55,776 nt of DNA, taken from assembly GCA_037139495.1 (NCBI GenBank), contig JBAXGG010000002.1, forward strand, positions 1 to 55,776, read 5' to 3'. The stretch comes from Candidatus Saccharimonadota bacterium. GTDB taxonomy: Bacteria > Patescibacteriota > Saccharimonadia > Saccharimonadales > JAUPVS01. The notes beneath the pieces were generated by a model. It searched no databases. It saw nothing but the letters and a program-made list of their open reading frames with translations, and was not told the DNA's origin. The translations under genes were made by a program, and so were the position numbers. Below, piece by piece: positions 65-32,911 of the stretch (positions are counted from its first letter, which is position 1; each line of letters begins with the position of its first letter).

Positions 65-95
65 TAGTTGCAATAGCGTCTACAGTGGCCCTCCA
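65..95 (+). repeat. Copy D of the 31-nt cassette-boundary core (TAGTTGCAATAGCGTCTACAGTGGCCCTCCA), inverted relative to copies A-C
   Basis: 28/31 nt match copy B (32403-32433, minus strand). It ends in TGGCCCTCCA, like the tRNA-Lys 3' end. A 7-bp hairpin follows (ATGCCAA...TTGGCAT, about 113-145). Confidence 0.7.
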
Positions 96-6411: not shown

Positions 6412-6696
6412 ATGAATAAACCCACCTCTTTGTCTACTTTTGCCAGCCCTGAAGAACAGGATGCATATGCACAGTCTCTTTTGCGAGTCGTAGCGCTAGA
6501 CTATGAAAAACAAAGAGCCCAAACACCGGTTACAAAACATATATTTTCCAAAAAACGTCTGATTATTCTGGCCGTTTCTACTATTATTAGCATCTTATCA
6601 TTTTGGGTCGTGTCTTTGGCCGGCAAACAATCCAATAATTCATCATCTCAGATCATTAACAGTGCCAAAACTTTTAACGATCCAAATAAATACTAG
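6412..6696 (+). CDS. Hypothetical single-TM protein
   Basis: 94-aa ORF with one hydrophobic helix (LIILAVSTIISILSFWVVSLA). Confidence 0.5.
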   Translation: MNKPTSLSTFASPEEQDAYAQSLLRVVALDYEKQRAQTPVTKHIFSKKRLIILAVSTIISILSFWVVSLAGKQSNNSSSQIINSAKTFNDPNKY

Positions 6697-10286: not shown

Positions 10287-11810
10287 ATGCCCAATAGTAA
10301 TGAAAAGATCGGTCAACTTATTTACCAGATACGGCAAGAACGTGGCCTGACCCAGGCAGAGTTCGCTCGCCGCCTGAGTACTAGCCAGTCAGCAGTCAAC
10401 CGCATCGAACACGGCAAACAAAATCTTAGCCTAGAAACCTTGGGTCGTATCAGCGACGTGCTCCAGAAACCATTAATCAGCATTAACCAGGGCGCAATTA
10501 ACCTTCAGATTGAAGGCGGTCAAGAACTCAGAGGGGAGATAACTATTAAAACTAGTAAAAATGCTGCTGTCGCCCTAATTTGTGCCAGCTTGTTGAATAA
10601 AGGTACCACCAAACTAAAAAATGTTGCTCGCATAGAGGAGGTCAACCGACTAATCGAGGTATTAGTTAGTATTGGGGTCAACGTTCGTCGGTTACCGGGC
10701 AATGAGCTTGAAATAAAACCGCCAGCTGTTTTTAACCTCGATAATATGGATAAGGATGCTGCACGCAAAACACGAAGTGTAATTATGTTTATCGGTCCCC
10801 TGATGCATGCCATGAAAGATTTCAAGATTCCATATGCTGGTGGCTGCGAATTAGGTCGTCGTACTGTCCTCCCGCATCTCTATGGTTTACAAGAATTTGG
10901 TGTCGAAGTAATTACCAAAACGGGTCATTATCATGTCACCGTTAATAAGCATTTACCGAGACGTTCAGTTGTTCTGTACGAATCAGGCGATACTACCACT
11001 GAGAATCTACTCATGGCGGCCGCCTTAACTGAAGGTGAAACCGTCATTAAGATGGCCAGTGCTAACTATATGGTTCAGGACTTATGTTTCTACCTACAAA
11101 AATTAGGTGTCAGGATAGCCGGTATCGGCAGCAGTACCTTGCGCGTCCAAGGACTTAAAGAAATAAAGAAGAATGTCTCCTATGCTCCAAGCGAAGACCC
11201 AGTCGAAGCCATGACTTTCGTAGCAGCTGCCGTAACTACAAACTCCGCCATAACTATCAAACGAGTGCCGATTGAATTTATGGAACTCGAGTTACTTAAA
11301 CTAGAGAAAATGGGTCTTGAATACAGTGAATCGAAAACCTATAAAGCCGAAAACGGCCAAACGGATTTGGTAGACTTAAAAATCAAGAAACACAACGGCA
11401 AATTAGTGGCACCTACTGATAAAATTCACCCCAACATCTTCCCAGGATTAAACATCGACCATCTACCTTACTTTGTACCAATCGCTGCCGTCGCCAAAGG
11501 TCGCACTCTGATCCATGACTGGGTGTACGAAGACAGAGCCTTGATGTATACCGAAATGAAAAAAATCGGCGTTAAGGTTGAACTAGCCGACCCGCACCGC
11601 GTTTTCATTGAAGGCCCAACTCGTTTTAAAGCCGCCGACCTAGTTTGCCCAAGCGGTATCCGCCCCGCCGTTATGATTCTGATTGGCATGCTAGCCGCTT
11701 CGGGCACATCTCTGCTCCGTAATGTTTATACTATCAACCGTGGTTACGAAGATTTGGCTGAACGCCTAAACTCACTTGGAGCCAAAATAACGGTTATGCA
11801 CGAGCTTTAG
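10287..11810 (+). CDS. murA: XRE-type HTH domain fused to UDP-N-acetylglucosamine 1-carboxyvinyltransferase
   Basis: 507 aa. Residues 1-65 form a canonical XRE HTH (LTQAEFARRLSTSQSAVNRIEHGKQN). From about residue 68 it is MurA (LRGEITIKTSKNAAVALICASLL; catalytic-loop Cys in YAGGCELGRRTV). There is no stop or ATG between the domains. Confidence 0.85.
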   Translation: MPNSNEKIGQLIYQIRQERGLTQAEFARRLSTSQSAVNRIEHGKQNLSLETLGRISDVLQKPLISINQGAINLQIEGGQELRGEITIKTSKNAAVALICASLLNKGTTKLKNVARIEEVNRLIEVLVSIGVNVRRLPGNELEIKPPAVFNLDNMDKDAARKTRSVIMFIGPLMHAMKDFKIPYAGGCELGRRTVLPHLYGLQEFGVEVITKTGHYHVTVNKHLPRRSVVLYESGDTTTENLLMAAALTEGETVIKMASANYMVQDLCFYLQKLGVRIAGIGSSTLRVQGLKEIKKNVSYAPSEDPVEAMTFVAAAVTTNSAITIKRVPIEFMELELLKLEKMGLEYSESKTYKAENGQTDLVDLKIKKHNGKLVAPTDKIHPNIFPGLNIDHLPYFVPIAAVAKGRTLIHDWVYEDRALMYTEMKKIGVKVELADPHRVFIEGPTRFKAADLVCPSGIRPAVMILIGMLAASGTSLLRNVYTINRGYEDLAERLNSLGAKITVMHEL

Positions 11811-11855
11811 GTTTTAGGGAAATAAAAAAGACTCCTTTATGAAGTCTGAAGTATA

Positions 11856-11933
11856 TGGGGCGAGCTATGGGGATCGAACCCACGACCTCCGGAACCACAA
11901 CCCGGCGCTCTAACCAACTGAGCTAAGCCCGCC
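11856..11933 (-). tRNA. tRNA-His (anticodon GUG), with encoded G-1 and CCA
   Basis: The reverse complement GGCGGGCTTAGCTCAGTTGGTTAGAGCGCCGGGTTGTGGTTCCGGAGGTCGTGGGTTCGATCCCCATAGCTCGCCCCA has an 8-bp acceptor stem including G-1:C73. Anticodon loop is TTGTGGT. Confidence 0.9.
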
Positions 11934-11993
11934 ATAACTCGATAATTATATCTGTTAAAGTACCCTTAAGCAAGCATGCCTAAGAAGTGGTTT

Positions 11994-12070
11994 TGGTGCC
12001 CCGGGTAGGACTTGAACCTACGACCTTGAGCTTAGAAGTCTCCTGCTCTATCCAGCTGAGCTACCGGGGC
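11994..12070 (-). tRNA. tRNA-Arg (anticodon UCU), CCA encoded, weak anticodon stem
   Basis: The reverse complement is GCCCCGGTAGCTCAGCTGGATAGAGCAGGAGACTTCTAAGCTCAAGGTCGTAGGTTCAAGTCCTACCCGGGGCACCA. The acceptor, D and T arms are good and the loop is CTTCTAA. The anticodon stem GGAGA/GCTCA has only 3 Watson-Crick pairs. Confidence 0.75.
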
Positions 12071-12081
12071 CTAACAAATTG

Positions 12082-12156
12082 TGGTGCGGGATACCGGAGT
12101 CGAACCGGTGTCCAAAGTTTGGAAAACTTTTATATTAACCGCTATACGAATCCCGC
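12082..12156 (-). tRNA. tRNA-Gly (anticodon UCC), CCA encoded
   Basis: The reverse complement GCGGGATTCGTATAGCGGTTAATATAAAAGTTTTCCAAACTTTGGACACCGGTTCGACTCCGGTATCCCGCACCA folds as a cloverleaf. Anticodon loop is TTTCCAA. It is the first gene of a Gly-Arg-His cluster. Confidence 0.85.
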
Positions 12157-12168
12157 ACGCTGGACAAT

Positions 12169-12177
12169 ATTATAACA
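12169..12177 (-). promoter_or_regulatory. Extended -10 element TGTTATAAT upstream of the tRNA-Gly/Arg/His cluster
   Basis: On the minus strand, TGTTATAAT lies about 12 nt upstream of the tRNA-Gly 5' end. Confidence 0.4.
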
Positions 12178-12189
12178 GAGATGGTTTAT

Positions 12190-14613
12190 TTATTGCCGGT
12201 CATCCAGCGTGGCTTGTAGTTCAGGTGCATCAAGCTGCATCGTCTGGCCCGGAATAACAGTTCCAGCTAAGAGACGTTGGGCGACAACGTTTTCGACGGA
12301 GCGTTGAACGGTCCGGCGTAATGGGCGTGCTCCTAATCTTGGGTCGTAACCCTTGTCGACAAGCAAATCTTTGGCCGCATCAGTCAGGCTAACCGTAATT
12401 TTACGTCCGGCCAACCCCTTATTAATACTCGCCATAAGTAGACCGACTACTTGTTTCAATTCTTGTTTGGTCAATGGTCTAAAAAGAATAATCTCATCGA
12501 ATCGGTTAAGGAACTCGGGGCGAAAAATATTATCGTTAATTAATTCGTTAACGAATGCTTCTTCGAATTGCTCAAGTTGCTGGCCAGCCTCAATGTGAGC
12601 CCGAATTTTGTCAGCACCGGCGTTGCTGGTAGCGATAATAATTGAATCCCTGAAGCTAATTGGTTTGTTTTGAGCGTCGCGCAGGGTGCCTTCGTCCAGT
12701 AATTGGAGCAGTAAATTTAGCACGTTCGGATGAGCTTTTTCTATTTCGTCGAGTAAGACTACGCTAAAAGGTTGCTTAGCAATCTGCGCACAAAGGCTAT
12801 ACGGATCATTTGCGCCAGCGGTTAACAATCGATTGGTGTCATCGGCGTGTGAAAATTCGTTAAGATCAATCCGGACAATCCGATCTTCGCCACCGAAGTA
12901 AACATCGGCCAGTGCCTTAGAAAGTTCGGTCTTACCAACGCCAGTCGGTCCCAAGAAAAGGAAAGTACCTATCGGTTTCTTTTCGTTTCCGACGCCTGTG
13001 CGAGCCCGCCTTAAAGCATCACTGACTAACTTAACGGCTCTAGACTGATTAATCATCCTCTCGTGAATCCTACTTTCTAGGTTTATTAAAGTGTCCTTTT
13101 CCTCAAAGCTGCTGGCGGTTTGAACTTTAATATCAAAAGATTTCTCGATAGCTTGCTGAACCGACTTAACCGTAACAAAATGTTTTTGCTCCGGGAAACC
13201 AGCCGCAGCATCAATCAGCTTTAGTGCTTTACCGGGGAATGCCTGTTCGTGAATGTAGCGTTCGGATAACTTATATGCCTCCTCTATAGCCTGACGCATC
13301 AATACAATCTGGTGCTTCCCTTCGATTAAAAGAGTCTGGTCTTCGATGATTTGAACAGTTTCATTGAAGTTAAGCGGGTTGACTACCACTCGATTAAGCG
13401 ACTGTACCAGGCCGGGATTTGTTTGAGCCAGTCGTAGCCATTCCTGATTATCCAAAGCAATAATAATCTTCAGAGCACCACCCTCTAATACTGGTAAAAG
13501 AATATTAGATAAATCAACCGAACCAGTACCCTCTCTCAGGAATAGCTGAGCCTCGTCCAAAAACAAAATCACGTTTTTAGCCTGGATAGCTTCGTTGAAT
13601 ATATGAATTAGTAACTCCTCTAGTTGACCCCGGCCTTGAGAGTTGGCAATTAAATGAGCGGCGTCTAGCTCAATTACCTGCTGATAGCGCAAAGTTTCTG
13701 GAACACTCTTAGGGTCTTGTAGTAATCGTTGCGCGATCGTATAGACCAAGGTTGTCTTACCGACACCAACTTCACCGACTAGCGTAGCGTTGCGACGTCC
13801 AGGCTGACCGAGCAAATGAATAATTTGATCTATTGTAGGGAGTCGACTGTCGACTGGTCGCCTTAGGATGCCACCACTCTGGATACTGTTAGTAATGTTA
13901 AATCCGACGTGGTTTAAAACTGGTGCCCAGCCGAAACTTAAATCACGACCGATCCCACCGTAATGGCGTCTTTCGCGATGTCGATCGCGCATCATTTTAA
14001 TGTGATGACGCCAACCAACGCCAGACAATATATCACCAGCGTCTAGTTCGAGCTGGGCTAATTGTTGTTCGTGATCTGGGTTAGATAATATTAGCGCTGC
14101 TACCAAAACCGTCGAATCAACAAGATCGCTGTTTGTTTTTTGGAGTACGCTCAATGCTTGCTGCCATACTGCGTCGGTGTGCGTCGGGTCATCTGATGTT
14201 AGCTGCTGCATAATATCTGGACCGATAGCAAAGCGTGAAGCAAAAAAGTAACCACCCTGCTCTTTAGCAACCAAATTAGCCAAATCCTGCGGCGACATAC
14301 CGGTTCGTAATTTGGATAATAACCGTCGGCTAAGAATATCTGTTATATCATTAATTTGGCTTGCCGAGCCAGGAGTTAAATCTTTAAGTTCGCCATAATA
14401 CCAGAATAACGGGATGGCTAACGTACCACTGAACGCAAACAGTAAGTGAGCGAGCATTTGGTGCTGGATAAAAACACCCCACACCCAGCCTAGCAAGTTC
14501 AGTAACAGGAACGTCCACAGTACCATCCGGAAGACTTTGTTATCAAAGGGTGCAGCAAAGCGCGACTTTTTGGCACGTGGGCTCTGTAGATTACAAACTA
14601 CCCCTGTGTTCAT
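12190..14613 (-). CDS. Membrane-anchored two-ring AAA+ Hsp100/Clp-family ATPase
   Basis: 807 aa with two N-terminal TM helices (VLWTFLLLNLLGWVWGVFI, LAHLLFAFSGTLAIPLFWYY). D1 has Walker A GEVGVGKTT and Walker B ILFLDEAQ. D2 has Walker A GPTGVGKTE and Walker B VVLLDEIEKA, plus the sensor-2 region GARPLRR. There is no long coiled-coil M domain. No [LIV]-G-[FL] loop occurs between SNAG and FRPEF. Confidence 0.85.
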   Translation of the reverse strand: MNTGVVCNLQSPRAKKSRFAAPFDNKVFRMVLWTFLLLNLLGWVWGVFIQHQMLAHLLFAFSGTLAIPLFWYYGELKDLTPGSASQINDITDILSRRLLSKLRTGMSPQDLANLVAKEQGGYFFASRFAIGPDIMQQLTSDDPTHTDAVWQQALSVLQKTNSDLVDSTVLVAALILSNPDHEQQLAQLELDAGDILSGVGWRHHIKMMRDRHRERRHYGGIGRDLSFGWAPVLNHVGFNITNSIQSGGILRRPVDSRLPTIDQIIHLLGQPGRRNATLVGEVGVGKTTLVYTIAQRLLQDPKSVPETLRYQQVIELDAAHLIANSQGRGQLEELLIHIFNEAIQAKNVILFLDEAQLFLREGTGSVDLSNILLPVLEGGALKIIIALDNQEWLRLAQTNPGLVQSLNRVVVNPLNFNETVQIIEDQTLLIEGKHQIVLMRQAIEEAYKLSERYIHEQAFPGKALKLIDAAAGFPEQKHFVTVKSVQQAIEKSFDIKVQTASSFEEKDTLINLESRIHERMINQSRAVKLVSDALRRARTGVGNEKKPIGTFLFLGPTGVGKTELSKALADVYFGGEDRIVRIDLNEFSHADDTNRLLTAGANDPYSLCAQIAKQPFSVVLLDEIEKAHPNVLNLLLQLLDEGTLRDAQNKPISFRDSIIIATSNAGADKIRAHIEAGQQLEQFEEAFVNELINDNIFRPEFLNRFDEIILFRPLTKQELKQVVGLLMASINKGLAGRKITVSLTDAAKDLLVDKGYDPRLGARPLRRTVQRSVENVVAQRLLAGTVIPGQTMQLDAPELQATLDDRQ

Positions 14614-29460: not shown

Positions 29461-30201
29461 TTAAGCCGAGAGCCGGTTCAAAAGAGCTTCGGGTATATCA
29501 AAATTTACATGGGTATTGGTGACGTCATCGATCTCGTCCAAGGCATCCATTAATCTTAGAATCTTACCGGCGGTCGCCTCATCTTCGACTACGACAGTAT
29601 TATTGGGTACATAGGTCAGCTCGGCTTCGGTAATCTCGTATCCATCCACTTTAAGGTTGTCACGGACATTAGCAAGTTCTTTAGCCTCAGTATAAATTAC
29701 AGATTCTAAGCCTTCTTCCTGAACGTCTTCGGCGCCGGCATCCAAAGCAGCCAGCAGTACTTCATCACCACTGCCGTGCAATCTAATCATGCCTTTATGG
29801 TCGAACTGAAAAAGCACAGCACCTTTTTCGGCTACACTGCCACCGTGTTTACTAAAAGCTAGTTTTACCTCAGGATAGGTTCGATTTACGTTATCGGTAG
29901 CAGCTTCGACAATAATAGCTACGCCACCGGGGCCATAGCCTTCGTACAAAACTTCCAGAATTTCGGCACCACCGAGTTTGCCAGAACCGCGGTCAATCGA
30001 ACGCTGGATGTTTGCTACTGGCATGTTGGAGGCTTTGGCTTTATCTACCGCCATGCGTAGCGAAAAGTTCATGTTAGGGTCGGCGCCAGCTCGGGCAGCG
30101 ACGGCAATATTATTGCCAAGCTTGGTGAATACCGCGCCGCGGGCGGCATCTTTAACGCCCTTCTGTCTTTTGATAGTAGACCATTTAGAGTGACCAGACA
30201 T
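29461..30201 (-). CDS. YebC/PmpR-family transcriptional regulator
   Basis: The family N-terminus MSGHSKWSTIKRQKG starts at the ATG at 30201. The upstream 42 codons of the track ORF (to 30327) are not family-like. Confidence 0.9.
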   Translation of the reverse strand: MSGHSKWSTIKRQKGVKDAARGAVFTKLGNNIAVAARAGADPNMNFSLRMAVDKAKASNMPVANIQRSIDRGSGKLGGAEILEVLYEGYGPGGVAIIVEAATDNVNRTYPEVKLAFSKHGGSVAEKGAVLFQFDHKGMIRLHGSGDEVLLAALDAGAEDVQEEGLESVIYTEAKELANVRDNLKVDGYEITEAELTYVPNNTVVVEDEATAGKILRLMDALDEIDDVTNTHVNFDIPEALLNRLSA

Positions 30202-30478: not shown

Positions 30479-30509
30479 ATGAGGGCCAGCGCGAAAGCTA
30501 TAGCAACTA
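30479..30509 (-). repeat. Copy C of the cassette-boundary core (TAGTTGCTATAGCTTTCGCGCTGGCCCTCA)
   Basis: It begins 4 nt after the NmrA-like gene's stop. By hand alignment, 24/31 nt match copy B. The flank CATACATAAG resembles the CATACATAAA found after tRNA-Lys. It overlaps a hairpin (GCTCTCATA...TATGAGGGC, 30458-30486). Confidence 0.65.
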
Positions 30510-30513
30510 TTAT

Positions 30514-31395
30514 TTATACAAAAACATCCTCAAGAACTTTAGGGTGAATATATGGAAAAAGTTCATGGGCCTTATTATTTGTAACCACCATTGGGTTAGA
30601 CAGTGAATCTACCATAATTCTGCCGACCTTGGCATGGGTTTTAGGAGTGAAAAGATTCAACCACCAAGCAGCAATACTTGCTGGTATAACGTGCAACTTG
30701 ATGATTACCACTTTTTTGTTTTCCCATGCAGCATACCGTTTCATTAGATCTCCGTAAGAAAGTTGCTCTGGACCGCCTATTTCTACTATTTGATTTTCTT
30801 GGGTATTCAAATTCAGGGCTGCGATTAAGTAGCTCAGCGCATCCTTTAAACCTATCGGTTGGGTTAATGTTTTTGCCCATTTAGGTAATGTAAGTACTGG
30901 TAGTTTGTGAATAAGATTTGTCACTATGTCGTACGATATGCTGCCGTTTCCTACCACCATAGATGCCCGGAATTCTATGACATGAAACCGACCATTTCTT
31001 AATATTTCACCTGTTTTGTGACGACTAGCAAGATGCTTAGATAATTTATCATGATCATTTCCTAGCCCACCAAGATATATAACTCTCATGATACTAGAAT
31101 TATTTGCAGCCCTGCAAAAACTTTCAGCGGCTTTTGCTTCCGCTTCAGCAAAATCAACTTTCTTTTGGGCCATCATGTGTATTAAATAAAAAGCCGTGTC
31201 ACAATCCTGAAGGTATGAATGTAGTTTTTCTGTATCGAATACATCAACATTATGTTTAGTTAAGCGTTTGTGATTAAAGGGGATTGATTCCGCTTCAGGT
31301 GATAATGCTATTACGCTATATTCAGTATCTGATAATAATCTTTCGATTAAATTATGTCCAATGTAGCCATTCGCACCTATTACCGCAATATTCAT
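30514..31395 (-). CDS. NmrA-like / atypical SDR NAD(P)-binding protein
   Basis: 293 aa with the Rossmann N-terminus MNIAVIGANGYIGHNLIERLL. Confidence 0.75.
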   Translation of the reverse strand: MNIAVIGANGYIGHNLIERLLSDTEYSVIALSPEAESIPFNHKRLTKHNVDVFDTEKLHSYLQDCDTAFYLIHMMAQKKVDFAEAEAKAAESFCRAANNSSIMRVIYLGGLGNDHDKLSKHLASRHKTGEILRNGRFHVIEFRASMVVGNGSISYDIVTNLIHKLPVLTLPKWAKTLTQPIGLKDALSYLIAALNLNTQENQIVEIGGPEQLSYGDLMKRYAAWENKKVVIIKLHVIPASIAAWWLNLFTPKTHAKVGRIMVDSLSNPMVVTNNKAHELFPYIHPKVLEDVFV

Positions 31396-31410
31396 AAATA
31401 ATATTCAGTA

Positions 31411-31716
31411 TTACGGTCTTGTTTCTTTTAGTTCTACAAGTATGGTGTGAGTGTCAGTTTTTCCAATGTTTTCGCCAATATGGTCTTGTTCGGGCTGCCA
31501 ACCGGCTTCGTAAGCCTTTTTATTTACAGTTTTCTCGTTGCCATTAACATAAAGTTTTCTATCGAAAGCGCTAAGAGTGAACGTAAAGGTATCGGGGTGG
31601 TGATGGAGTGTAGTTTTATCTCCTGGCTTATCTTTGTATTCAAACACTCGGACTCTGTCATTCTCAAATATTACTTTGTAATTATCTGGATTAGTGGTTT
31701 CTGGATCTTTGTTCAT
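31411..31716 (-). CDS. Small cupin-like protein
   Basis: 101 aa. YKVIFENDRVRVFEYKDKPGDKTTLHHHP is typical of small cupin-fold proteins. It lies 15 nt upstream of the NmrA-like gene. Confidence 0.6.
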   Translation of the reverse strand: MNKDPETTNPDNYKVIFENDRVRVFEYKDKPGDKTTLHHHPDTFTFTLSAFDRKLYVNGNEKTVNKKAYEAGWQPEQDHIGENIGKTDTHTILVELKETRP

Positions 31717-31722
31717 CGTTTA

Positions 31723-31731
31723 ATTATAACA
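31723..31731 (-). promoter_or_regulatory. Extended -10 TGTTATAAT, 6 nt upstream of the cupin ATG (leaderless-type)
   Basis: The minus strand reads TTGTTATAAT-TAAACG-ATG. There is no SD sequence between them. Confidence 0.45.
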
Positions 31732-31757
31732 AAACAGGAGCAATTTGCTCCTGTTTT
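31731..31757 (-). terminator. Terminator hairpin of module A
   Basis: AAAACAGGAGCAA-T-TTGCTCCTGTTTT. A/T runs on both sides, so it could act bidirectionally. Confidence 0.65.
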
Positions 31758-31802
31758 AAGAATAAGCGTATTGGAGGGACGTATGTATCGCTGTTGCAAC
31801 TA

Positions 31803-32345
31803 TTATAAAGAATACTTCCAGCCAGGTTGCCAGGATTTAGTCTTTCGCCAATCATTTGCAAATGCTTCGTCCCAGTTCATTCCTTTAACTAAAACATCCA
31901 AAGCAAGCTGGGGAGCTTTATGGGCAACGATTGCAATGTGCTTGCCATCGTATTGTGTTTTTATTTCGTTTATAAAGTCTTCAATTCTTGCTTTGACATC
32001 TTCGTAACTTTCACCCTTTGGCATTGGCGTTGTTATGGATTTTTCTTGCATAGGTTCAACTATGCTTGAATCTTTACCGTTCATATCTCCATAATTACAT
32101 TCACGGAGTCTTCTATCTGCAAACATAGGGTAATTATTGCCCCAAGTCAGATTAGCTGAATCTATGGCTCTGCTTAAGTCAGATGTGAATACTGCATCAA
32201 ATTTCAAGTTTTCTGTTAACTGTGTGAGGTCTTTTGACTGCTGTATACCTAAATCAGATAGCCTTGCATCATTCCATCCAGATGATCTGTTGTTTTCATT
32301 ATCTACGGTTGTGCCGTGAACAAAGTACGTAATCTTGACTGACAT
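31803..32345 (-). CDS. Histidine phosphatase (phosphoglycerate mutase-like) superfamily protein, VHG variant
   Basis: 180 aa. The family blocks SDLSRAIDSA, LRECNYGDMNG, GESYEDV and IAIVAHKAPQLAL are present, but the N-terminal motif reads FVHGTT instead of RHG. Confidence 0.75.
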   Translation of the reverse strand: MSVKITYFVHGTTVDNENNRSSGWNDARLSDLGIQQSKDLTQLTENLKFDAVFTSDLSRAIDSANLTWGNNYPMFADRRLRECNYGDMNGKDSSIVEPMQEKSITTPMPKGESYEDVKARIEDFINEIKTQYDGKHIAIVAHKAPQLALDVLVKGMNWDEAFANDWRKTKSWQPGWKYSL

Positions 32346-32351
32346 ATATTA

Positions 32352-32360
32352 ATTGTATCA
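32352..32360 (-). promoter_or_regulatory. Extended -10 TGATACAAT, 6 nt upstream of the phosphatase ATG (leaderless-type)
   Basis: The minus strand reads TTGATACAAT-TAATAT-ATG. Confidence 0.45.
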
Positions 32361-32361
32361 A

Positions 32362-32388
32362 AAAACAGAGGCATATTACCTCTGTTTT
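32362..32388 (-). terminator. Terminator hairpin of module B
   Basis: On the minus strand: AAAACAGAGG-TAATATG-CCTCTGTTTT followed by TTG. The stem differs from module A by paired, compensatory changes. Confidence 0.7.
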
Positions 32389-32430
32389 AAGCATAAGCGG
32401 TATGGAGGGCCATCGTAGATGCTATTGCAA

Positions 32431-32775
32431 CTATTTTGGGCGAACAATCTCGGATTCAAACCATTCTTCTTGAAACTTAGTAGCCTCACGAATCTCTTTG
32501 TCAGTAAAGTTAACTTTTGGCTCACAGACCACTAACTTATCATCGTCGTCGTTTGTGCGATGTATGATTGCAATGCAATGTCCCGCAAACTCATTTATCG
32601 GCTCATCTACACCTAGCACGTAGGCATCTAGCTCTTCTCCATCCGGCGCCTTAGTACCAGGCACAAACCCATAGTTGATAGGGTAAACAAAGTCATACTT
32701 TGGATGCATGCTTCCAAGTGGACGGTCAATCTCCACTTTGACGTCCTGTCCAAGAAAAGGTAGTGAATATTTCAT
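32431..32775 (-). CDS. Small inorganic pyrophosphatase-like protein
   Basis: 114 aa. INYGFVPGT...DGEELDAYVLG...AIIHRTNDDDDKLVV resembles the short inorganic-diphosphatase-like family. Confidence 0.6.
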   Translation of the reverse strand: MKYSLPFLGQDVKVEIDRPLGSMHPKYDFVYPINYGFVPGTKAPDGEELDAYVLGVDEPINEFAGHCIAIIHRTNDDDDKLVVCEPKVNFTDKEIREATKFQEEWFESEIVRPK

Positions 32776-32782
32776 ATCTAGT

Positions 32783-32791
32783 ATTATATCA
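32783..32791 (-). promoter_or_regulatory. Extended -10 TGATATAAT, 7 nt upstream of the PPase-like ATG
   Basis: The minus strand reads TTTGATATAAT-ACTAGAT-ATG. It lies directly downstream of the tRNA-Lys 3' end and resembles the promoter part of modules A and B. Confidence 0.45.
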
Positions 32792-32834
32792 AAGAAAAAC
32801 TCCTCATATTTAGAAGTTTATGTATGGACTAATT

Positions 32835-32911
32835 TGGAGGGCCCAGTGGGACTCGAACCCACGACACCCTGCTTAAAAGGCAGGTGCTCTAACCAGCTGA
32901 GCTATGGGCCC
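32835..32911 (-). tRNA. tRNA-Lys (anticodon UUU), CCA encoded
   Basis: The reverse complement GGGCCCATAGCTCAGCTGGTTAGAGCACCTGCCTTTTAAGCAGGGTGTCGTGGGTTCGAGTCCCACTGGGCCCTCCA folds as a cloverleaf. Anticodon loop is CTTTTAA. Confidence 0.92.

Follow-up and report, generated by a model that had tools for sequence, protein, structure and literature searches.

The stretch of DNA analysed here (hereafter the window) comprises 55,776 nucleotides of a contig from a Candidatus Saccharimonadota bacterium (JBAXGG010000002.1, assembly GCA_037139495.1). Directly downstream of a tRNA-Lys(UUU) gene, it carries an islet of four genes organized in three small units, each of which is closed by a 31-nt sequence (hereafter the core) that partly copies a tRNA-Lys 3' end. 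ARAGORN, Rfam and the open reading frame (ORF) calls agree with the original prediction in placing this tRNA gene at 32835-32911 on the minus strand, followed by four minus-strand genes. The gene labels given at that time were supported by Pfam for the PPase-like protein, the histidine phosphatase and the NmrA-like protein, but not for the supposed cupin, a 101-aa ORF. The GC content of the islet (30479-32834) is 38.4% versus 44.7% for the whole window, i.e. about 4 standard deviations low relative to sliding windows of the same size (standard deviation 1.6%; 0.5% of windows equally low), and nowhere else in the window is the GC content lower. At third codon positions, it (GC3) ranges from 0.30 to 0.41 for the genes of the islet and from 0.41 to 0.49 for those on either side. 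The islet is thus AT-richer than its flanks, as earlier hand counts had indicated, and computed windowed composition distinguishes the two. The features are listed below, where array 1 denotes the units downstream of this tRNA gene and scores refer to a position weight matrix (PWM) built from the cores.

32835..32911, minus strand: tRNA-Lys(UUU), the putative attB-like anchor of array 1 (ARAGORN; Rfam RF00005, 74 bits)
32403..32834, minus strand: cassette 1 (432 nt), consisting of a 59-nt 5' arm, the PPase-like ORF and core B
32783-32791, minus strand: extended -10 sequence of cassette 1, TGATATAAT, ending 7 nt before the ATG
32431-32775, minus strand: PPase-like ORF (Pfam Pyrophosphatase, E=6.5e-9), a short protein
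32403..32433, minus strand: core B, TAGTTGCAATAGCATCTACGATGGCCCTCCA, whose TAG serves as stop codon for the PPase-like ORF; PWM score 43.5
31772..32402, minus strand: cassette 2 (631 nt), consisting of a type-1 arm, TACCGCTTATGCTTAAAAC, the histidine-phosphatase ORF and core A
32362-32388, minus strand: perfect hairpin and T-run of cassette 2
32352-32360, minus strand: extended -10 sequence of cassette 2, TGATACAAT, ending 6 nt before the ATG
31803-32345, minus strand: histidine-phosphatase ORF (branch-1; Pfam His_Phos_1, E=4.8e-31)
31772..31802, minus strand: core A, TAGTTGCAACAGCGATACATACGTCCCTCCA, with TAA directly before it; PWM score 40.0
30479..31771, minus strand: cassette 3 (1293 nt), consisting of a type-1 arm, the 101-aa ORF, the NmrA/SDR-like ORF and core C
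31731-31757, minus strand: perfect hairpin with T-run of cassette 3, showing compensatory changes relative to the hairpin of cassette 2
31723-31731, minus strand: extended -10 sequence of cassette 3, TGTTATAAT, ending 6 nt before the ATG
31411-31716, minus strand: 101-aa ORF without a Pfam match at E<=0.01
30514-31395, minus strand: NmrA/SDR-like ORF (Pfam NAD_binding_10/Epimerase/NmrA)
30479..30509, minus strand: core C, TAGTTGCTATAGCTTTCGCGCTGGCCCTCAT, degenerate and ending in CCCTCAT; PWM score 19.7
29461-30201: yebC, beyond core C and after the distal end of array 1
65..95, plus strand: core D, TAGTTGCAATAGCGTCTACAGTGGCCCTCCA, the last core of a second array that crosses the left edge of the window

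Cores B, A and C occupy exactly the coordinates originally proposed and lie 0-4 nt from a stop codon as described; the fourth copy (core D) had been overlooked. Core C, which forms the distal end of array 1, has its stop codon (TAA) 4 nt upstream. With up to one mismatch, TAGTTGCWAYAGC occurs in four copies in the window versus 0.41 expected, and 0 of 100 shuffles reached four copies; the 9-mer GGCCCTCCA by itself shows no significant enrichment within the window. The recurrence of CATACATAA after both tRNA-Lys(UUU) and core C, which had also been noticed, was found at both places.

The consensus of 205 unique core copies is TAGTTGCAATAGCGTCCACGATGGCCCTCCA. The 3' end of tRNA-Lys(UUU), ...CTGGGCCCTCCA, is the source of the shared CCCTCCA. 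The last ten bases of the consensus (TGGCCCTCCA) are identical to the 3' end of tRNA-Lys(CUU), and 17 of its last 20 positions are shared with one 3'-end variant of that tRNA, GAGTCCCAGATGGCCCTCCA. The cores had been described as copies of the adjacent tRNA end; they do copy a tRNA-Lys 3' end, but tRNA-Lys(CUU) is a better match than the adjacent UUU gene, which explains the apparent 1-nt gap between the cores and tRNA-Lys(UUU). The 5' 13 nt of the core and a conserved A-r-t-t immediately upstream of it are not tRNA-like.

No Rfam family matches the core (only tRNAs were found), mutual information is limited to adjacent columns without conserved internal pairing or long-range covariation, and folding of the core plus 75 nt as DNA yielded a long core/arm hairpin at 1 of 40 sites (locus L080, core at 584; L numbers designate the loci collected) and no common hairpin. 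With one folding site only and no covariation, an attC-like or RNA hairpin was rejected. At the L080 site (core 584-614 and the next ~60 nt), core and arm co-vary (GTTTCAAT / ATTGAAAC) and form a DNA hairpin of -19 kcal/mol. Some arms (CTAGTRGGAATACTATTGCAACCAAGAGCC) are inverted copies of the core 5' half, and most sites are without such pairing; type-2 arms are found in L087, L112, L111 (core at 6694) and L107 (core at 1859). Translation of the core gives plausible-looking peptides (IVAIAST.., SCNS..PP and, on the reverse strand, WRAxCExIATKL), but a coding reading was ruled out because the stop-to-core offsets are scattered, the frames contain stops, start codons are absent, and the conservation is accounted for at the DNA level. 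A programmed frameshift or readthrough into the core, as conceivable from C_CCA_AAA before core B, is not general among the copies. A CRISPR repeat, a sigma-54 promoter, a -35 box and a dif/Xer site were discarded by inspection only, since the consensus does not fit their spacing rules.

Relatives were retrieved with the YebC sequence of the window (Saccharimonadales metagenome-assembled genomes [MAGs], best identity 83%), yielding a core-independent sample of 80 loci of ~20 kb each centred on yebC (1.31 Mb, or 1.36 Mb including the window). A scan of 185,579 species-representative genomes with the pattern GTTGCAAYAGY-N11-CCCTCCA matched at least 117 stretches, and loci found in this way were retrieved at up to 8 kb; an earlier scan with a strict pattern had produced mostly chance matches and one true locus (L015). 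At least ~250 cores were collected from ~190 related loci. The assemblies used are mostly MAGs, and the core pattern is no assembly artefact because it was seen in many independent assemblies, including the chromosome-level OY970151.1.

In these genomes, tRNA-Lys(UUU) is a conserved neighbour of yebC, located 0.2 to >7 kb away in either orientation, and anchors arrays in relatives too. The PWM detected 40 copies of the core in the yebC-centred loci and none in shuffled sequence. Where such a locus contains tRNA-Lys, 33 of the 34 cores are located downstream of it and co-oriented and none upstream, the exception being copy D of the window; the six cores in loci without tRNA-Lys are all no more than ~1.2 kb away from the end of a contig. 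No cores are present in the other ~1.1 Mb of Saccharibacteria DNA that was sampled. A dispersed repeat of the repetitive extragenic palindrome or miniature inverted-repeat transposable element type was therefore rejected: over the 1.36 Mb, the cores are not scattered in either orientation and are confined to DNA downstream of tRNA-Lys. Among the matches listed for the pattern scan, tRNA-Lys is present in 49 of the 91 strong-core loci (31 CUU and 20 UUU), 109 of 114 strong cores are downstream of and co-oriented with it, up to eight cores occur per 6-8 kb, and nearly all high-scoring cores are on contigs labelled Saccharibacteria or Patescibacteria. The few high-scoring cores on contigs labelled as other taxa are taken to be on mis-binned contigs, and the remaining low-scoring matches are at chance level. 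These data agree with the expectation that the locus would vary among relatives, which do not carry the same four genes and differ in both the tRNA-Lys-yebC distance and the contents, and that the core would occur elsewhere; it is found throughout Saccharibacteria, essentially restricted to DNA downstream of tRNA-Lys genes. The proposal of one att site was right about the tRNA-Lys target but not about the number: both the UUU and the CUU gene act as anchors, and arrays of both kinds reach into the window if the second array is anchored as described below.

Several other peculiarities were seen at tRNA-Lys loci. A second tRNA-Lys copy lies within the array in L222 (2212-3936), L147 (1640-1715) and L157 (3617-4152); the extra copies in L222 and L147 share ~90 nt of sequence on their upstream side, which gives the impression of a cassette bearing a whole tRNA-Lys gene. 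Cores upstream of a tRNA-Lys were seen in L147 and L229. The core-less loci L083, L095, L099 and L140 contain, 150-185 nt past tRNA-Lys(UUU), a repeat of at least 20 nt from the 3' end of tRNA-Lys, with a T-arm-like piece (GTGTCGTGGGTTCG) ~70 nt before it. No Rfam family matched here; a minor scar and an element resembling a tRNA are both conceivable. In L118, L095 and L114, a convergent tRNA-like 3' end (TGG...GGGATTCGAACC, opposite strand) that is not called by ARAGORN follows straight after the tRNA-Lys terminator.

Core D belongs to a second array. Locus L145, from the same sample, matches the first 3 kb of the window at 100% identity and reaches 1.9 kb further left, where two more cores are found upstream of copy D (L145 positions 11329-13309), together with a DUF711 cassette and an oppositely oriented LMW-phosphatase (LMWPc) cassette. 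Copy D is thus the last of at least three cores, and the L145 contig ends short of the anchor. This anchor is most likely an off-window tRNA-Lys(CUU) gene, because the cassettes are 97-99% identical to cassettes of CUU arrays (L183 and L234). The window is divided between two separate contigs in the ENA assembly ERZ27299986: k141_584076 (23.2 kb) covers positions 1-21344, and k141_1046378 (38.0 kb) covers about 21-55 kb. The former stops within the second array, as repeat-induced assembly breaks would give.

The cassettes share a common order: an arm of 15-20 nt, often a terminator hairpin, an extended -10 sequence, a gene (sometimes a pair) and the 31-nt core. In a set of 253 cores, the core-to-core spacing has a median of 704 nt (interquartile range [IQR] 594-890), a co-oriented ORF of at least 60 aa ends between -6 and +80 nt before the core in 73% of cases, and the median length of the cassette ORFs is 149 aa. 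Units had been predicted to contain single genes, which is the usual case but not that of the third unit of the window, which carries two. In 133 single-ORF cassettes, the median distance from the preceding core to the start codon is 58 nt. Of these cassettes, 66 have a TATAAT-like hexamer whose end lies exactly 6 or 7 nt ahead of the start codon, 58 have a TG-extended box 3-12 nt from the start, 52 have a hairpin with a T-run in front of the promoter, and only 11 have a Shine-Dalgarno-like sequence. All three units in the window have an extended -10 sequence (TGnTAnAAT) 6-7 nt before the ATG. Because of this position of the -10 box and the rarity of Shine-Dalgarno sequences, the cassettes appear to be autonomous units that would produce leaderless mRNAs. 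Leaderless mRNAs may be a general trait of Saccharibacteria.

The contents of the arrays are highly diverse, with 144 cassette proteins matching 106 Pfam families. The commonest are the YafQ, YoeB, ParE and PIN toxins, small kinases, NUDIX hydrolases, deaminases and peptidase S51, and cassettes longer than 2 kb encode surface proteins with sortases, ABC transporters and GNATs. The large protein clusters in the array loci are all formed by flanking housekeeping genes (RimK, a 164-aa membrane protein, FolD, DnaK/J, MurD, YebC and RuvABC), and the array genes form tiny clusters.

The key test was the comparison of homologous cassettes across genomes, ranks in the array and anchors, in which homology runs from recombination point to recombination point. 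The pairs are as follows (identity and boundaries).

Window cassette 1 and L192 cassette 3: 87.4%, boundaries -8/+3 nt; after tRNA-Lys(UUU) versus third in a tRNA-Lys(CUU) array
L145 LMWPc cassette and L183 cassette 1: 97.5%, boundaries -12/+1 nt
L218 and L233 cassettes: 80.6%, boundaries -7/+2 nt; tRNA-Lys(CUU) array versus tRNA-Lys(UUU) array
L145 and L234 cassettes: 99.3%, ending at +1

The homology starts at ..CCCTCCA and stops 1-3 nt past the core; the few bases shared to the left of the cassettes are the ..(G)CCCTCCA that is common to the tRNA and the cores. The LMWPc cassette is the third visible unit in L145 and the first after tRNA-Lys(CUU) in L183, with different neighbours on both sides. 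Homology that ends at CCCTCCA on both sides is what serial site-specific integration at the tRNA 3' end predicts, and cassettes that are 97-99% identical but differ in their neighbours speak for turnover in the recent past. The L111 array contains, at its distal end, a close homologue of the window's NmrA-like gene; the 101-aa ORF is missing there.

The sequences that follow the CCA of the tRNA and those that follow the cores belong to the same arm families. The arm GCTTATGCTTAAA is present after 29% of the cores and 38% of the tRNA-Lys genes in array loci, versus 3% of the tRNA-Lys genes in core-less loci and 0.4% of control 30-mers, and tRNA-Lys of L111 is followed by nearly the same 43 nt (arm plus hairpin) as core B of the window. 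In many cases, core positions 24-25 do not match the tRNA present in that genome but move with the cassette, as exemplified by GTCCCTCCA cores beside a ..GGGCCCTCCA tRNA in L111 and by GGACCTCCA versus GGCCCTCCA in the L145/L183 pair. Because these positions travel with the cassette, the exchange must lie to their right, within CC(C)TCCA; the base that follows this motif is mostly A and is possibly part of the exchange region.

Considering the sequence comparisons together, the islet is probably a tandem array of small mobile cassettes that arose by repeated site-specific recombination at the tRNA-Lys 3' end. Serial accretion at a tRNA-Lys att site had been the original proposal, and the variable contents, the widespread core, the deviant composition and the exact cassette ends support it. 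In a circular cassette, the core would abut the arm to form an attP-like site in the 3' untranslated region between the stop codon and the terminator, and this site would recombine with the CCTCCA of the tRNA end or of an existing core (attB-like), leading to insertion of the unit. After insertion, the tRNA would acquire the terminator of the cassette, while the following unit would provide the terminator for the cassette gene. This handing on of terminators would explain the stereotyped layout of the cassettes. The crossover would fall in the last 6-7 nt, CC(C)TCCA, and an overlap of 6-8 bp is typical for tyrosine recombinases; we infer that the enzyme belongs to this class, which the overlap length suits, that a circular intermediate is involved, that new units may enter next to the tRNA, and that the system may be active at present.

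The absence of a visible recombinase from the window, noted at the outset, agreed with searches of its ORFs for XerD, Tn3 resolvase, Hin and L179-integrase homologues. The same queries (phmmer with the first three and jackhmmer with the L179 integrase; ORFs of at least 50-60 aa) detected no recombinase within arrays, cassettes >2 kb included. With no enzyme linked to the arrays, the recombinase would have to act in trans, either encoded elsewhere by the host or carried by an unseen element; the array of the window, whose most distal core is degenerate, may alternatively be a fossil, the other possibility named at the outset. The tyrosine integrase of L179 was considered as the cassette enzyme and rejected, since its family heads islands at other tRNAs that have no cores. 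This family comprises ~298-aa integrases with about 2,000 homologues, encoded beside tRNA-Leu, Gly, Val, His or Pro; integrase-headed islands are found at 3517-5762 in L179 and around 8400-10900 in L265, L267 and L269. Two conserved ORFs (~211-225 and 225-312 aa) precede the integrase in L179, L265 and L267, the second ORF of L269 being 209 aa long, and islands of this family carry a Cu-ATPase, restriction-modification methylases or a large serine recombinase.

Several observations weigh against serial site-specific integration. Among all ORFs of the window and ~190 loci, the only tyrosine integrase is that of L179 and no other tyrosine or serine recombinase was found, although these were single-sequence searches that are blind to divergent or novel types and covered neither DDE, HUH and IS110-type enzymes nor whole genomes. 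Scans of IMG/VR and blastn searches of INPHARED and PLSDB revealed no phage, plasmid or circular form bearing a core. With increasing rank from the tRNA, cores fit the consensus only a little less well (rho=-0.19, p=0.03), and because this decay trend is weak, tRNA-proximal entry is poorly supported. Exact identity to the tRNA spans just 9-12 nt in individual cores, and the 5' half of the core, TAGTTGCAAYAGC, is not tRNA-derived and is left unexplained. Exact-protein look-ups for array variants of this species returned only the same sample, and the data are MAG-based.

An alternative is that no dedicated recombinase exists and that the units are reshuffled after natural transformation by RecA or short-homology recombination, with the 31-nt cores and the 77-nt tRNA as handles and with cassettes being exchanged or lost between repeats. 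Saccharibacteria possess competence genes and are transformable, the single recombinase found near ~190 arrays belongs to a family unconnected with cores, and exchange between well conserved direct repeats would likewise set boundaries at the cores. However, a 31-nt repeat with 70-95% identity just reaches or falls short of what efficient homologous recombination usually requires; a unit added next to the tRNA needs right-hand homology and the tRNA shares only 9-12 nt, and the left boundaries fall at 7-12 nt shared with the tRNA, which is too short for RecA. Reshuffling also leaves unexplained why the cores are copies of a tRNA 3' end and why the same arm follows tRNA and cores, and we regard it as unlikely, though it is the strongest of the alternatives. 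Less probable still is the view that the cores are fossil attR scars and the units decayed remnants of integrase-bearing islands or prophages at tRNA-Lys, their genes being survivors of deletion. Partial repeats of a tRNA 3' end are the standard mark of such elements, the core-less relatives have tRNA-Lys 3'-end repeats of at least 20 nt at 150-185 nt downstream, and bigger integrase-headed islands occupy other tRNAs in Saccharibacteria. Decay does not readily account for units that are uniformly small (see the spacing above) with a stereotyped arm-promoter-ORF-core order, for the lack of integrase fragments in the loci searched, for the conservation of the non-tRNA half of the core across distant genomes, or for the recurrence of 97-99% identical cassettes with the same exact ends and different neighbours.

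It is also conceivable that the core is a functional element of the 3' untranslated region or the DNA (a site for a regulator, an RNase or a nucleoid protein), with its likeness to tRNA due to mimicry or chance and its clustering to a generic hot spot. A role of this kind would fit the constant position of the core, which follows a stop codon and precedes the next terminator in the orientation of the gene, as well as its fixed length and its strongly conserved non-tRNA 5' half. Yet the core has no conserved pairing, common hairpin or Rfam match, it does not occur in the other ~1.1 Mb, where many genes need 3' ends, and cassette homology stops at it, making this explanation very improbable.

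Among known systems, integrons resemble these arrays in being co-oriented tandem arrays of compact, mostly single-gene cassettes (0.3-1.4 kb), each closed by a repeat resembling a recombination site, with hyperdiverse content that is rich in toxin-antitoxin genes and small enzymes on a fixed chromosomal platform; having no adjacent integrase, the arrays are also similar to clusters of attC sites lacking integron-integrases (CALINs). They are not integrons, because there is no intI, no attC hairpin or GTTRRRY sequence, and the cassettes have their own promoters. The anchor is a tRNA 3' end rather than attI, with two platforms per genome (UUU and CUU); the repeat is a fixed and partly tRNA-derived 31 nt, in contrast to attC hairpins of 57-141 nt with R''/L''-L'/R' boxes, and its GTTGCAA misfits GTTRRRY. 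No intI was found near the arrays in single-query searches of limited sensitivity, and the extended -10 promoters of the cassettes contrast with expression from Pc. The early description of an integron-like outcome fits the layout of the cassettes, which carry promoters of their own and differ in this from integron cassettes.

Of the traits of tRNA-targeted islands, direct repeats of a tRNA 3' end that bound the inserts are present, together with an intact tRNA, and no integrase was found beside the att sites. In streptococci, integrative elements and integrase-less cis-mobilizable elements (CIMEs) accrete in tandem at the 3' end of tRNA-Lys and of other genes, and movement of the CIMEs is attributed to the integrase of a helper, acting in trans or in cis (PMC5704250; PMC7563491). 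CIMEs and the present arrays share att repeats from the tRNA-Lys 3' end, the lack of recombination and transfer genes of their own, and tandem accumulation. CIMEs, however, are few, kilobases long and clearly derived from integrative and conjugative or integrative and mobilizable elements, whereas up to at least eight units of ~0.7 kb with a stereotyped promoter-gene-core design are found here, with a core that is conserved across a whole bacterial class and no helper detected in the flanks, IMG/VR, INPHARED or PLSDB. Tycheposon islands of Prochlorococcus likewise place flexible genes downstream of particular tRNAs in a streamlined genome (10.1101/2020.12.28.424599). In them, too, partial tRNA repeats mark successive integrations and older material is pushed distally, but tycheposons carry tyrosine or large serine recombinases, replication modules and many-kb cargo; the cassettes have neither recombinases nor replication modules, consist of single genes, and use an att repeat with a conserved non-tRNA half.

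Modules that depend on Xer include the integrative mobile elements exploiting Xer recombination (IMEXs) and the pdif modules of Acinetobacter plasmids. These are similar in being small, often toxin-antitoxin or single-function units with short bounding sites and a recombinase encoded elsewhere. On inspection of the consensus, however, the core|arm junction lacks the two 11-bp inverted arms and 6-8 bp spacer of dif-like sites, and the repeats here are direct and located at a tRNA end. The arrays differ from known tRNA-integrating elements in their miniature units, a core that is half non-tRNA, the use of two isoacceptor genes and class-wide conservation. No description of them was found in the full-text literature, coverage of which was partial, so that absence is unproven.

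The arrays may represent a lineage-wide gene-capture platform of independent origin, an analogue of integrons in which an unlinked recombinase, perhaps a housekeeping enzyme that was co-opted or a member of a new family, inserts and excises self-expressing, leaderless single-gene cassettes at a core or at the tRNA 3' end of both tRNA-Lys genes and which serves as a main route for accessory genes, although we propose this broader view tentatively and it is somewhat less likely to hold than to fail. Saccharibacteria and other members of the candidate phyla radiation have tiny genomes with few recognizable mobile elements and strain-variable gene content, and how they acquire genes is poorly understood. 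If correct, serial integration of cassettes at tRNA-Lys would provide a concrete mechanism for the gain and shuffling of genes in these ultra-reduced epibionts. The 31-nt core would then be a tag with which to harvest accessory genes from metagenomes, as attC is for integrons. For engineering, the arrays would offer a natural landing pad in the few cultivable strains, one that already includes the logic of promoter and terminator. Integron-like arrays would moreover have arisen repeatedly in evolution, in this case from the attachment site of a tRNA, and an undiscovered recombinase would be implied.

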